DNA of 64,000 nucleotides from Escherichia coli (GCF_003334815.1 NZ_QOWO01000013.1); one strand, 5' to 3'. Shown: positions 23,964-29,064, counted from the first letter of the stretch. Made by a program: numbers and translations. Notes: a model not told the origin generated them from the sequence alone.

Positions 23964-25625
23964 ATGAGTGATATAGCATTAACGGTCAGTATTCTGGCTT
24001 TGGTGGCAGTCGTCGGTTTGTTTATCGGCAACGTCAAATTTCGCGGCATAGGATTAGGTATTGGCGGCGTGCTGTTTGGTGGGATCATCGTCGGCCATTT
24101 TGTTTCTCAGGCGGGGATGACATTAAGTAGCGATATGCTGCATGTTATTCAGGAATTTGGCCTGATCCTGTTCGTTTATACTATCGGGATTCAGGTAGGG
24201 CCGGGCTTCTTTGCCTCATTGCGCGTCTCCGGATTACGCCTCAACCTGTTTGCTGTTCTGATCGTCATCATCGGTGGTCTGGTTACCGCCATCCTGCATA
24301 AACTGTTTGATATTCCACTGCCGGTAGTGCTGGGGATTTTCTCCGGTGCGGTTACCAATACGCCAGCGCTGGGGGCAGGGCAGCAGATTTTGCGCGACCT
24401 GGGTACACCAATGGAAATGGTCGATCAGATGGGGATGAGTTACGCGATGGCGTATCCATTCGGCATTTGCGGGATTTTGTTCACCATGTGGATGTTGCGG
24501 GTTATTTTCCGCGTCAATGTCGAGACAGAAGCTCAGCAGCACGAGTCTTCACGCACCAATGGCGGCGCGCTGATCAAGACTATCAATATTCGCGTTGAGA
24601 ACCCTAACCTGCATGATTTAGCCATTAAAGATGTACCGATTCTCAACGGCGACAAAATTATCTGCTCGCGTCTGAAACGCGAAGAAACCCTAAAAGTTCC
24701 TTCGCCAGATACCATTATCCAACTGGGCGATTTGCTGCATCTGGTGGGTCAGCCAGCGGATTTACATAATGCGCAACTGGTGATTGGTCAGGAGGTCGAT
24801 ACTTCGCTGTCCACGAAAGGCACTGATTTGCGCGTCGAGCGTGTGGTGGTCACCAATGAAAACGTGCTCGGAAAACGTATTCGCGACCTGCACTTTAAAG
24901 AACGCTATGACGTTGTTATCTCGCGCCTGAACCGTGCCGGGGTCGAACTGGTCGCCAGTGGCGATATCAGCCTGCAGTTCGGCGATATCCTCAATCTGGT
25001 GGGGCGTCCGTCCGCAATTGATGCCGTTGCCAATGTGCTGGGGAATGCGCAGCAAAAACTGCAACAGGTTCAGATGCTGCCAGTGTTTATTGGCATCGGG
25101 CTAGGCGTATTGTTAGGTTCTATTCCCGTCTTTGTGCCAGGATTCCCGGCCGCGTTGAAACTGGGGCTGGCGGGCGGACCGCTGATTATGGCGTTGATCC
25201 TCGGGCGTATCGGCAGTATCGGCAAGCTGTACTGGTTTATGCCGCCAAGCGCCAACCTCGCGCTGCGGGAGCTGGGGATCGTGCTGTTCCTCTCGGTCGT
25301 TGGTCTGAAATCTGGTGGGGATTTTGTGAATACCCTGGTCAATGGCGAAGGGCTAAGCTGGATTGGTTATGGTGCCCTGATCACCGCCGTTCCGCTGATT
25401 ACTGTTGGCATTCTGGCGCGGATGTTAGCCAAAATGAATTACCTGACCATGTGCGGGATGCTGGCAGGTTCCATGACCGATCCTCCGGCGCTGGCGTTTG
25501 CTAATAATCTTCATCCAACCAGCGGTGCGGCGGCGCTCTCTTACGCCACTGTCTATCCGTTGGTAATGTTCCTGCGCATTATCACCCCCCAATTACTGGC
25601 GGTGCTCTTCTGGAGTATCGGTTAA
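23964..25625 (+). CDS. yidE: Putative transport protein YidE (AAE family, two TrkA-C-like domains)
   Basis: [35 protein letters not shown]..., polytopic membrane protein; 553 aa from the MSDI start. Confidence 0.85.
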
Positions 25626-26338
25626 CTCTTTTCCGGGTGGAGTCGCCGTAAATGGTACTCCACCTGGTATTCGCTGGCATTTCTGAACATCACTGAATAA
25701 TTCAAAAACTCCCCGCTCTCGCTATATGACAACGAGGTGATCCGCAGCAGTGGCGTGTGTTCCGCTACCTTCATTTGCCGCGCCAGCAGTCTATCGGCGA
25801 GCACTGGCGTCAGGCTTTCATAATTACCGCCAATCAAAATCCCGCACTCTTGTTCAATATATTCAAACTTCGACCCTTCCAGATGTTGCAGCGAAAGATT
25901 ACGGAACAGTTTTACCGGCATATAGCTGTCTTCCAGCATCAGCGGTTTCCCTTCCACAAAACGAACGCGACGGGAGAAGTAGATCTGCTCGTTGATTTGA
26001 ATCCGTAACTGGCTGGCAATGGCCGGAGGCGCAGGCATGATTTCAAAAATCAGCACCTGGCTGGTGACCGTTTTTCCCTGCCGTTTTAACACCTCCACCA
26101 GCCCGGTCAGACTGGCGGTTTGATGCAGTACATCTTTGCGCACCAGGTAAGTGCCACTACCGTGGCGGCGGACCACCAGCCCCCACGCTACCAGCAGGTC
26201 AATGGCTTTACGGATGGTCATCCGCGATACCGCAAACTCTTCCGCCAGCTTTTTTTCACCGGGAAGAAGGCTGTTTAGCGTGAAATCTGCGGAGTTAAGT
26301 CGAATTCTTAACCGCTCCGCAATGCTTTTGTAGATCAT
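25622..26338 (-). CDS. yidP: GntR/HutC-family transcriptional regulator YidP
   Basis: [52 protein letters not shown]... with wHTH and UTRA-like domains; 238 aa. Confidence 0.85.
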
Positions 26339-26633
26339 CTCTAGATCTCTTTTTTGCCTGCAAGCCCGGGTAATGCGCACACAAGTTCTGCTTAATCGAT
26401 TGAAAAAACATCTTTTTTTTAAAGATGTGTTCGATGCTGTGTACCTGTGCTCACAGAGGTCTACTTTTTCGCGAAAACGTAGATCTCTACCGCCCAACGA
26501 AAAGCATGAAAGCGATCACGAATCCCATTGGGTCGTCATGTTCTGCCGATCGCATCTTCCTATCCTCGCTCCAGGCCTGCCGCATAACCAATCAGGCTTC
26601 CTACTTACAGAATTGAGAAAAGAGGATGTGGAA

Positions 26634-28250
26634 ATGCTCAGTCAAATTCAACGCTTTGGCGGCGCGATGTTCACGCCAGTGCTGCTGTTTCCCTTCGCCG
26701 GGATTGTGGTGGGTCTTGCCATCTTGCTGCAAAACCCGATGTTTGTCGGGGAATCACTGACCGATCCGAACAGTTTATTCGCGCAAATCGTACACATTAT
26801 TGAAGAGGGCGGTTGGACGGTATTCCGTAATATGCCGCTGATTTTTGCTGTCGGTTTACCCATTGGCCTTGCTAAGCAAGCGCAGGGGCGTGCTTGTCTG
26901 GCGGTGATGGTGAGTTTCCTGACCTGGAACTATTTCATCAACGCGATGGGAATGACCTGGGGAAGCTACTTCGGCGTCGATTTCACTCAGGACGCGGTGG
27001 CAGGTAGCGGTCTGACAATGATGGCCGGGATTAAAACCCTCGATACCAGCATTATCGGCGCAATTATCATTTCCGGCATTGTGACGGCGCTGCATAACCG
27101 TCTGTTCGATAAAAAACTGCCGGTTTTTCTCGGCATTTTCCAGGGGACGTCTTATGTGGTGATTATCGCCTTCCTGGTGATGATCCCCTGTGCCTGGCTG
27201 ACGTTGCTCGGCTGGCCAAAAGTACAAATGGGGATTGAATCTCTGCAAGCGTTCCTGCGTTCGGCGGGTGCACTTGGGGTCTGGGTTTACACCTTCCTCG
27301 AACGTATTCTGATCCCAACCGGTTTACACCACTTCATCTACGGACAGTTTATCTTTGGTCCGGCAGCTGTTGAAGGCGGCATTCAGATGTACTGGGCGCA
27401 GCATCTGCAAGAGTTCAGTTTGAGCGCCGAGCCGCTGAAATCGTTGTTCCCGGAAGGCGGTTTTGCCCTGCACGGTAACTCAAAAATCTTTGGTGCCGTG
27501 GGCATTTCTTTAGCGATGTACTTCACTGCCGCACCGGAAAATCGGGTAAAAGTGGCGGGCTTGCTGATTCCCGCAACCTTAACCGCCATGCTGGTGGGAA
27601 TTACCGAACCGCTGGAATTTACCTTCCTGTTCATTTCACCGTTGCTGTTTGCGGTACACGCCGTGCTGGCGGCCTCAATGTCGACCGTAATGTATCTCTT
27701 TGGTGTGGTGGGCAACATGGGCGGAGGTCTGATTGACCAGGTTTTACCGCAAAACTGGATCCCGATGTTCAGCAACCACGCGGATATGATGCTGACCCAA
27801 ATCGCCATTGGGTTGTGCTTTACCCTGCTGTACTTCGTGGTTTTCCGCACACTGATTCTGCAGTTCAACATGTGCACGCCGGGACGTGAAGATGCGGAAG
27901 TGAAACTCTACTCAAAAGCCGAATACAAAGCCTCGCGAGGCCAAACCACCGCGGCAGAGCCAAAAAAAGAGCTGGATCAGGCTGCCGGTATCCTGCAAGC
28001 CCTGGGCGGGGTCGGCAATATCTCCAGCATTAACAATTGCGCGACGCGTTTACGTATTGCACTGCATGACATGTCACAAACGCTGGATGACGAAGTCTTT
28101 AAAAAGCTGGGAGCGCACGGCGTCTTCCGTAGTGGCGATGCCATTCAGGTGATCATTGGTCTGCATGTATCTCAGCTGCGTGAACAGCTCGATAGCTTAA
28201 TTAATTCTCATCAATCAGCAGAAAATGTTGCCATTACGGAGGCAGTATAA
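26634..28250 (+). CDS. glvC: PTS EIICB component (glucose/maltose family; glvC-glvB equivalent, continuous here)
   Basis: Single 538-aa ORF from [35 protein letters not shown]...; the C-terminal part has an EIIB-like motif (NCATRLR). K-12 annotations have listed this as separate glvC and glvB. Confidence 0.75.
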
Positions 28251-29064
28251 TGACCAAATTCTCAGTGGTTGTCGCAGGCGGTGGAAGCACCTTTACGCCA
28301 GGCATCGTGTTGATGCTCCTGGCGAATCAGGACCGTTTCCCGCTTCGTGCACTGAAATTTTATGATAACGATGGTGCGCGGCAGGAAGTGATTGCCGAAG
28401 CCTGTAAAGTCATCCTTAAAGAAAAAGCGCCGGACATTGCGTTTAGTTACACCACCGATCCTGAAGTGGCATTCAGCGACGTTGATTTTGTCATGGCGCA
28501 CATCCGCGTCGGCAAATACCCGATGCGCGAACTGGATGAAAAAATCCCGCTGCGCCACGGCGTTGTTGGTCAGGAAACTTGCGGACCCGGCGGAATAGCG
28601 TACGGCATGCGTTCCATTGGCGGCGTCCTGGAACTGGTGGATTATATGGAAAAATATTCACCAAATGCCTGGATGCTCAACTACTCCAACCCGGCAGCCA
28701 TTGTCGCAGAAGCCACGCGTCGTCTGCGCCCGAATGCGAAAATCCTCAACATCTGTGACATGCCAATCGGTATTGAAAGCCGGATGGCGCAAATTGTTGG
28801 GCTGCAAGATCGCAAACAGATGCGCGTGCGCTACTACGGCCTGAACCACTGGTGGTCGGCGATATCCCGCAGTTTCAGAAAGGGTTAATGAGTCAGCAAG
28901 TGGCGGTGGAAAAACTGGTCGTGGACGCCTGGGAACAGCGTTCATATCAGCACCTGTGGCAGGCGATTACGTTGTCGAAAACGGTACCGAGCGCCTCGGT
29001 CGCCAAAGCTATTCTGGATGAGTTGCTGGAGGCCAACAAAGCGTACTGGCCAGAGTTACGTTAA
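28250..29064 (+). pseudogene. glvG: Truncated/frameshifted 6-phospho-glucosidase (glycoside hydrolase family 4) gene
   Basis: N-terminal 212-aa ORF (28250..28888) [23 protein letters not shown]... and a 70-aa ORF in another frame (28852..29064) resembling a GH4 C-terminus; total is far short of the roughly 440 aa of intact GH4 enzymes. Confidence 0.75.

Follow-up and report, generated by a model that had tools for sequence, protein, structure and literature searches.

The glv operon of Escherichia coli: an open permease frame beside a hydrolase gene broken by deletion

Introduction

Why is one sugar operon of Escherichia coli K-12 annotated as a row of small genes, when the same locus in another strain of the species carries a single uninterrupted permease gene? 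The question is raised by a stretch of 64,000 nucleotides from E. coli (GCF_003334815.1 NZ_QOWO01000013.1), referred to below as the window, which contains the glv locus: a regulatory gene (yidP), the gene for an EIICB permease of the phosphotransferase system (PTS), and the remains of a gene for a GH4 hydrolase. In the K-12 gene list the corresponding entries are glvC, glvB, glvG and ysdC, the last of which sits between glvG and yidL (PMC10652928). The K-12 homologues of Klebsiella aglA (encoding an EIICB) and aglB (encoding a phospho-alpha-glucosidase) have been called 'cryptic or nonfunctional truncated proteins' (PMC5309279). The locus has thus already been described as cryptic or truncated in K-12, and it does not represent a new kind of system. 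What is added here is a precise account of the lesions, the order in which they probably arose, and how often each is found among complete genomes of the species. The locus in the window is very probably the cryptic glv (alpha-glucoside PTS) operon of E. coli, a module of three genes that is undergoing ordinary gene decay.

The identity of the locus, which had been proposed in an earlier reading of the window made from the sequence alone (the sequence-only reading), is borne out by the order of its genes: ibpB-yidE-yidP-EIICB-GH4 remnant-yidL-yidK, the same as in K-12. The surrounding 5-kb stretch has matches in 5419 of 5426 RefSeq complete E. coli genomes, a collection that is not a random sample of the species and on which all of the population counts below are based. 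The window strain is not K-12. Over a length of 25 kb the window shows 100% identity to several wild isolates, among them NCTC9041, KE58, and one from a chicken. When the window is compared with K-12 HMS174 over 8 kb, two base differences are found, at positions 27738 and 30747. The second of these lies in yidK, where the window has G and HMS174 has A; the first lies in the permease gene and is considered below. The features that the sequence-only reading had described are all present at the coordinates it gave, which are collected with others in Table 1.

A continuous permease gene and its K-12 fragments

The open reading frame (ORF) of the permease extends from 26373 to 28250 in the ORF listing, and translation from the ATG at 26634 gives a protein of 538 amino acids without a single internal stop. 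This ATG is preceded by a Shine-Dalgarno sequence, AGAGGA, and is the start used by the Prokaryotic Genome Annotation Pipeline (PGAP) in every related genome.

What distinguishes this gene from its K-12 counterpart? There is only one base difference from HMS174 within the gene: at position 27738 the window has C where K-12 has T, which converts codon 369 from CAG to TAG. The amber codon cuts the K-12 permease short, so that it lacks the EIIB domain, the linker and the final membrane segment, and yields 'glvC' (368 amino acids) and 'glvB' (161 amino acids); in PGAP the K-12 gene is marked as a pseudogene, with the flag 'internal stop'. The two alleles were counted with a 55-mer query, each 28-base word of which covers base 27738. 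The T (amber) allele was found in 348 of the 5426 genomes and the C allele in 3926. Among the 40 matches listed for the T allele are MG1655, DH1, C600, MC4100, J53-type, and O16:H48 strains, and all 40 are K-12-like in genome size and for the most part named laboratory strains. The continuous frame is therefore the ancestral form, and the pair of genes known as glvC and glvB is a derived one, created by a lineage-specific nonsense mutation; the two are annotated separately because of one C-to-T amber change in the K-12 lineage. The sequence-only reading had remarked on an uninterrupted frame of 538 codons where K-12 annotations list two genes. Both halves of that remark hold, and the amber codon at Gln369 accounts for the difference.

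The permease belongs to the alpha-glucoside type. It scores 954.7 bits against NCBIfam TIGR02005 (alpha-glucoside-specific IIBC; cut-off 607.3), and the match runs over all 524 positions of the model (1-524) and residues 2-523 of the protein. By comparison, the PtsG-type model TIGR02002 gives 312 bits against a cut-off of 592. The orthologs of the permease carry the Pfam domains PF02378 and PF00367. It had been suggested that alignment to PtsG-type proteins would show whether the permease is full-length and retains the phosphorylatable cysteine of its EIIB domain. The window protein aligns end to end with the solved structures of E. coli PtsG (8qsr), and the cysteine is retained. The GITEPLEF motif (from residue 322), the TPGRED linker (from residue 415) and the NCATRLR motif, which contains Cys469, all lie opposite their PtsG counterparts; NCATRLR corresponds to ACITRLR in the EIIB domain of PtsG, and Cys469 is invariant in 13 orthologs. 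Both of the EIIC sugar-site motifs, GLHH and GITEP-EF, are present. There is no EIIA domain in the protein, and for this reason the permease would be expected to use EIIA-Glc (Crr) as its phosphoryl donor, as the homologues from Klebsiella and Bacillus do in a K-12 host (PMC5309279).

One annotation of the intact permease may itself be a product of the K-12 mutation. The NCBIfam model NF007255 (PRK09702, 'PTS sugar transporter subunit IIB', an equivalog of 161 positions) matches exactly residues 378-538 of the window protein (27765..28250), a span that equals the GlvB fragment made by the amber mutation in K-12. This fragment-derived model probably explains why PGAP gives the name 'PTS sugar transporter subunit IIB' to the 538-residue EIICB in every genome.

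Despite its open frame, is the window permease identical to its relatives at all conserved positions? There is a single position at which it departs from a column that is invariant in the other orthologs. Codon 238 encodes glutamine in the window and proline in 13 of 13 orthologs, which share 80-99% identity with it. The residue lies five positions downstream of GLHH, and PtsG also has proline at the aligned position. The Gln238 allele is present in 1792 of the 5426 genomes, including K-12 W3110. Among the sampled loci it was found in nine of 16 with the hydrolase deletion described in the next section and in none of the eight intact strains. Judged by this pattern of conservation, P238Q is a candidate for a missense change that impairs function.

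The hydrolase remnant and the 508-bp deletion

The gene downstream of the permease had been read as a decayed glucosidase gene, consisting of an N-terminal ORF of 212 codons and a C-terminal fragment of 70 codons in another frame. This description proved correct, and both pieces can be traced to a single event. The intact allele of strain ERL04-3476, 1323 bp in length and encoding 440 amino acids, is annotated as a 6-phospho-alpha-glucosidase. Alignment of window positions 28250..29064 to this allele, the step that had been suggested for defining the lesion, shows six mismatches and a single gap, which measures exactly 508 bp. In the intact allele the missing segment is flanked by two 8-bp direct repeats, GAACCACT, of which one copy is left in the window. 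The deletion begins directly past the codon for His200 and removes residues 201-369. The frame is shifted because 508 equals 3 x 169 + 1. As a result, native residues 1-200 in the 5' piece run into 12 out-of-frame residues and a stop, while the 3' ORF, which is in a different frame from the 5' ORF ((28852-28250) mod 3 = 2), is identical to the last 70 residues (371-440) of the intact E. coli enzyme.

The out-of-frame peptide beyond the junction includes WWSAIS (28850..28867), which resembles the native FGWWTSI, so that the HMMER alignment runs beyond the junction. This likeness is due to the similarity of the two repeat regions beyond the 8-bp core (GAACCACT..TGGTGG).

Which family does the remnant belong to? 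The 212-residue ORF matches positions 2-182 of the 183 in Pfam Glyco_hydro_4 (PF02056, E 5e-67), and it scores 428 bits against the 6-phospho-alpha-glucosidase structure 6dux, presumably the Klebsiella enzyme, and 365 bits against Bacillus subtilis GlvA (1u8x). For the intact E. coli hydrolase the scores are 912 bits against 6dux, in an alignment from end to end, and 747 bits against 1u8x. The 70-residue ORF matches Pfam Glyco_hydro_4C (PF11975), where it covers only positions 168-211 of 211, the last 44. In NCBIfam no model that names a GH4 enzyme was matched above its cut-off, the best being PRK15076 with 177 bits against 486; for that reason the family assignment is based on the Pfam and PDB matches. 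These matches agree with the earlier view that the fragments come from a GH4 enzyme. Cys169, Asp170 and His200 are kept in the 5' remnant, and Tyr263 was in the deleted segment. With an offset of two residues, these positions correspond to C171, D172, H202 and Y265 of B. subtilis GlvA, the catalytic set made up of the Cys and His metal ligands, the Asp, and the Tyr base.

Might the 212-residue product, the GlvG ORF of K-12, nevertheless function as a stand-alone NAD-binding protein? It keeps a complete PF02056 domain with Cys169, Asp170 and His200, and its start is translationally coupled to the end of the permease gene, the ATG overlapping the TAA stop by one base (TAATG). Set against this, the PF11975 domain is lost except for 44 positions, those positions are in another frame, and Tyr263 is gone. 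The variants private to deletion strains also point away from a functional protein: nonsynonymous and synonymous changes in the remnant number 4:2, and among them are a changed start codon and, in the 3' piece, a newly arisen nonsense codon. PGAP calls the remnant a frameshifted pseudogene in every genome examined. A stand-alone function is therefore regarded as very unlikely, and by its sequence the remnant is a pseudogene of a GH4 phospho-alpha-glucosidase and not a functional member of the family.

Further decay of the pseudogene is seen in individual strains. Two loci (L005 and L008, and a third, L025, by its PGAP flag) carry an extra CAG-to-TAG nonsense mutation in the 3' remnant, in the 37th of the last 70 codons, and in one deletion strain the start codon of the hydrolase has changed from ATG to GTG.

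States of the locus across E. coli genomes

How widespread are these lesions? The 508-bp segment is present in 1653 of the 5426 genomes, and the identical deletion junction, detected with a 46-mer that matches the fused junction only, is present in 2617. The junction test thus finds the locus in 4270 genomes (1653 + 2617), and the codon-369 test finds it in 4274 (3926 + 348). An open permease gene next to a deleted hydrolase gene is the commonest state in the species.

In about 1150 genomes (~21%), only the yidE and yidL flanks match. Strain SA186 provides an example of this state (L018 926..1022). It has lost about 3.4 kb, corresponding roughly to window positions 25693..29093, and with them yidP and the permease and hydrolase genes; about 65 bp of the 3' end of yidP is left, and yidL encodes 288 rather than 297 amino acids. 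Because a 3' remnant of yidP persists, the absence of the whole block is a secondary deletion. Other disruptions in the neighbourhood include an insertion of the IS5-like element ISKpn26 in the 5-kb region, an IS1A copy that splits yidL, and a frameshifted yidL (H1 CFS3292, H21 EC5, and L012 ETEC6334).

Have all copies of the 508-bp deletion descended from one event? The haplotypes around it are mixed. Strain ES5 (L004), which carries the deletion, is the same as the intact B-type strain TUM9757 (L017) at all markers from 803 bp to the left of the deletion to 548 bp to its right, and the K-12-type deletion haplotype is the same as the B-type from about -790 to about +180. This sharing would be explained either by a recombined tract of less than 1 kb or by the deletion having arisen on a B-type haplotype. 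The deletion may also have recurred at the 8-bp repeats.

The frequencies also bear on a trivial explanation, namely that the continuous permease frame or the deletion is an error of sequencing or assembly. That idea, which is hardly credible and has no finding in its favour, is refuted by the 3926 genomes with the CAG allele, by the 2617 with the junction, and by the 25 kb of identity with independently obtained wild isolates.

Is the permease under selection in deletion strains?

If the hydrolase is destroyed, why is the permease still open? One answer is that decay has advanced less far in the window strain than in K-12, so that the gene has gained P238Q but has been spared the amber codon. 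Another is that the permease is kept by selection for a role that is independent of the GH4 enzyme: auxiliary uptake of glucose or alpha-glucosides, sensing of the state of the PTS, or uptake followed by dephosphorylation or by the action of another hydrolase. A comparison of 26 loci, eight with an intact hydrolase and 18 with the 508-bp deletion, bears on the choice between them.

The permease frame is open in all eight intact strains and in 15 of the 18 deletion-bearing loci, a count that favours maintenance, as does the preservation of the linker, of Cys469 and of the GITEPLEF motif in the window protein. Furthermore, one protein, WP_000952127.1, is common to some deletion strains and some strains with an intact operon. 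The three broken frames are those of two K-12-lineage records, which have the amber codon, and of strain 2012C-4227 (L020), which has a 6-bp in-frame deletion at nucleotides 249-254 and a 1-bp deletion at nucleotide 686. The damage in 2012C-4227 may be independent, or it may reflect an assembly error. Taken as separate knock-outs, the K-12 amber and the 2012C-4227 frameshift argue against maintenance, and so does the loss of the whole yidP-glv block from about one-fifth of the genomes. General knowledge of the PTS points the same way, in that uptake without a hydrolase would give a dead-end sugar phosphate.

Is there a signature of constraint in the permease sequence itself? In the deletion strains the ratio of nonsynonymous to synonymous polymorphism (pN/pS) of the permease gene is only 0.07, a value that would ordinarily favour maintenance. 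It was rejected as a sign of maintenance, since the dead hydrolase remnant is similarly low in the same strains (0.10). The equally low value for the remnant implies that most of the polymorphism predates the deletion or came by recombination. A substitution test was consequently restricted to variants private to one class, in 16 deletion and eight intact loci. For the permease, the ratio of nonsynonymous to synonymous private variants is 9:10 in the deletion strains as against 5:29 in the intact strains (Fisher p = 0.02). Moreover, of the nine amino-acid changes found only in the deletion class, seven are at columns that do not vary among the 13 orthologs. This excess of amino-acid changes, mostly at invariant columns, suggests, though not conclusively, that the open permease frame is 'not yet broken' rather than maintained. 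Selection for a GH4-independent role is accordingly judged to be rather improbable. A stronger version of this idea, in which some 40% of sequenced E. coli would keep an open and expressed permease without its hydrolase, co-opted for a hydrolase-independent role, is less probable still.

Nothing contradicts the anatomy set out above. Several points weigh against reading the locus as one of simple decay. The case for relaxed constraint depends on 16 + 8 loci that are phylogenetically non-independent, and the polarity of the alleles is taken from class-privacy only, in a region where recombination is evident. With 15 of 18 deletion loci retaining an open permease frame, some degree of maintenance is possible. 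P238Q may or may not impair function. A scan of 26200..29300 for sigma-70 consensus promoters found no sites, as against 2.9 expected by chance; no promoter was identified, so that the operon may or may not be expressed. Laboratory K-12 strains and clinical clones are over-represented among the genomes, and the percentages are not population frequencies.

What, then, becomes of the suggestion in the sequence-only reading that the operon has a potentially functional transporter without its hydrolase? It stands in part. The ORF and the catalytic motifs of the permease are intact, but P238Q at an otherwise invariant proline, together with the apparent relaxation of constraint and the independent breakage of the gene in deletion strains, counts against function.

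Proposed history of the operon

How might the operon have worked before it decayed, and in which order did the lesions arise? By orthology, the intact form would consist of a two-gene operon under the control of YidP. The permease would be phosphorylated via EI, HPr, and EIIA-Glc (Crr), and it would take up alpha-glucosides, among them isomaltose, the isomers of sucrose, and methyl-alpha-glucoside, as their 6-phospho derivatives, a substrate range suggested by that of the orthologous systems. The NAD+/Mn2+-dependent GH4 6-phospho-alpha-glucosidase would then release glucose-6-phosphate and the aglycone.

The 508-bp segment may have been lost between its 8-bp repeats by slippage or illegitimate recombination, and the pathway is dead in the strain of the window. 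The order of decay proposed here, as the most economical reading, leads from the intact operon to the 508-bp deletion, then to P238Q, and finally to the K-12 amber codon, which would place the window one step short of K-12. The glv locus has been lost repeatedly in E. coli, by deletion within the hydrolase gene, by nonsense or frameshift mutations in the permease gene, by deletion of the whole block, and by frameshift in yidP.

The regulator YidP and the control region

The divergent regulatory gene had been assigned to the GntR/HutC group, and the domains of its product agree with this. YidP, encoded on the minus strand, contains a GntR domain (PF00392, residues 3-64, E 7e-21) and a UTRA domain (PF07702, residues 87-224, E 2e-30). 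Its NCBIfam matches are to HutC/PhnF/TreR-like models, and all of them fall under the curated cut-offs. On the strength of these domains YidP is placed in the HutC subfamily of the GntR family, and it is presumed to be the repressor of the operon.

The control region between yidP and the permease gene contains a 34-bp palindrome at 26455..26488 (AGAGGTCTACTTTTTCG/CGAAAACGTAGATCTCT, 88% complementary). It also contains two exact copies of TAGATCTCT, at 26342..26350 and 26480..26488, one of which abuts the start of yidP. The palindrome and the copies of TAGATCTCT are candidate operators for YidP.

In two strains with both structural genes intact, E. coli B-LamR (L014 623..1260) and TUM9757 (L017 659..1296), yidP carries a frameshift flag and, at 638 bp as against 717, is shorter by 79 bp. 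The E. coli B lineage may possibly represent a natural example of a derepressed alpha-glucoside PTS.

Is the locus also under the control of the SOS response? One review credits glvB with a 'potential SOS box' (PMC6590174). When CTGT-N8-ACAG was searched for, allowing at most one mismatch, no sites were found in or upstream of the glv genes (26200..28300), and this candidate was rejected. The sole perfect box in the window is the LexA-type sequence CTGTATAAATAAACAG at 36921..36936, which adjoins istR (RF01400, 36990..37119) and tisB.

Coordinates and other features of the window

Table 1. Features of the glv locus, in window coordinates
Feature	Position	Strand	Basis
yidP, 238 aa	25622..26338	-	GntR and UTRA domains; same frame annotated by PGAP in K-12 and other strains
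Intergenic control region of the divergent yidP and EIICB genes, 295 bp	26339..26633	.	Palindrome and repeats
EIICB gene, 538 aa, alpha-glucoside-type PTS; equals K-12 glvC and glvB fused	26634..28250	+	TIGR02005; PtsG alignment
Codon 238, CAG (Gln)	27345..27347	+	CCG (Pro) in strains with an intact operon and in all orthologs
Codon 369, CAG (Gln); TAG (amber) in K-12	27738..27740	+	Base comparison with HMS174
Codon for Cys469, phosphorylatable EIIB cysteine, motif NCATRLR	28038..28040	+	PtsG alignment; orthologs
5' remnant of the GH4 6-phospho-alpha-glucosidase gene (K-12 glvG), 212-aa ORF	28250..28888	+	Alignment to intact allele; PF02056
Deletion junction, single remaining copy of the 8-bp repeat GAACCACT	28843..28850	+	Alignment to intact allele
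3' remnant of the hydrolase gene (K-12 ysdC), 70-aa ORF, native residues 371-440	28852..29064	+	PF11975; identity

Other RNA features, of the K-12 type that would be expected, are found elsewhere in the window. They include the ROSE_2 thermosensor upstream of the ibp genes (22749..22821), AsdA, which is antisense to dnaA (7018..7098), tRNA-Sec (53925..54015), and the small RNA ES036 (12575..12617).

Comparison with known systems and significance

How does the locus compare with its relatives? The K-12 operon matches the window in gene order and in the 508-bp deletion, and it shares P238Q (in W3110); it differs in the additional amber codon at Gln369, where the window keeps the ancestral CAG. 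Intact E. coli alleles, such as those of O157:H7, ERL04-3476, and E. coli B, are also close to the window, with a permease that is one residue apart and flanks that are 98-99% identical. In contrast to the window, they keep the 508-bp segment and Pro238, although in E. coli B and TUM9757 yidP is frameshifted.

Outside the species, AglA and AglB of Klebsiella pneumoniae constitute an orthologous two-gene module for an alpha-glucoside PTS, and enterobacterial orthologs of the permease are 80-87% identical to that of the window. Unlike the locus in the window, in which the hydrolase is destroyed, that of Klebsiella is functional: isomaltose and the isomers of sucrose support the growth of K-12 only with aglAB or with Bacillus glvAC, and this growth is crr-dependent (PMC5309279). 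GlvA (MalA) and GlvC (MalP) of B. subtilis, likewise orthologous, have the same GH4 NAD+/Mn2+ family and the same EIICB architecture, but this system is more distant and, unlike that of the window, functional. To our knowledge, the B. subtilis glv regulator is not an orthologue of YidP. E. coli PtsG resembles the window permease in its architecture and in its GLHH, GITEP(I/L)EF, PGRED-linker and C(I/A)TRLR-cysteine motifs; it is a distant paralogue, with proline opposite Gln238 of the window.

What does the locus tell us about the decay of bacterial genes? An oddity of the K-12 annotation is explained: glvC and glvB result from one amber codon, while glvG and ysdC are what the 508-bp deletion has left of the two ends of a single gene. 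Together the strains supply an ordered series of decay for one sugar operon, with the loss of the whole block and the loss of the repressor as side branches, and pseudogenisation could be taught or benchmarked on it as a small case. Should the doubtful idea of a co-opted permease prove true, the protein might provide auxiliary sugar uptake, signalling of the PTS state, or an entry route for compounds, and P238Q would then have altered its specificity adaptively instead of damaging it. The use of alpha-glucosides may not be the same in K-12 as in strains with intact alleles, such as O157:H7 and E. coli B.

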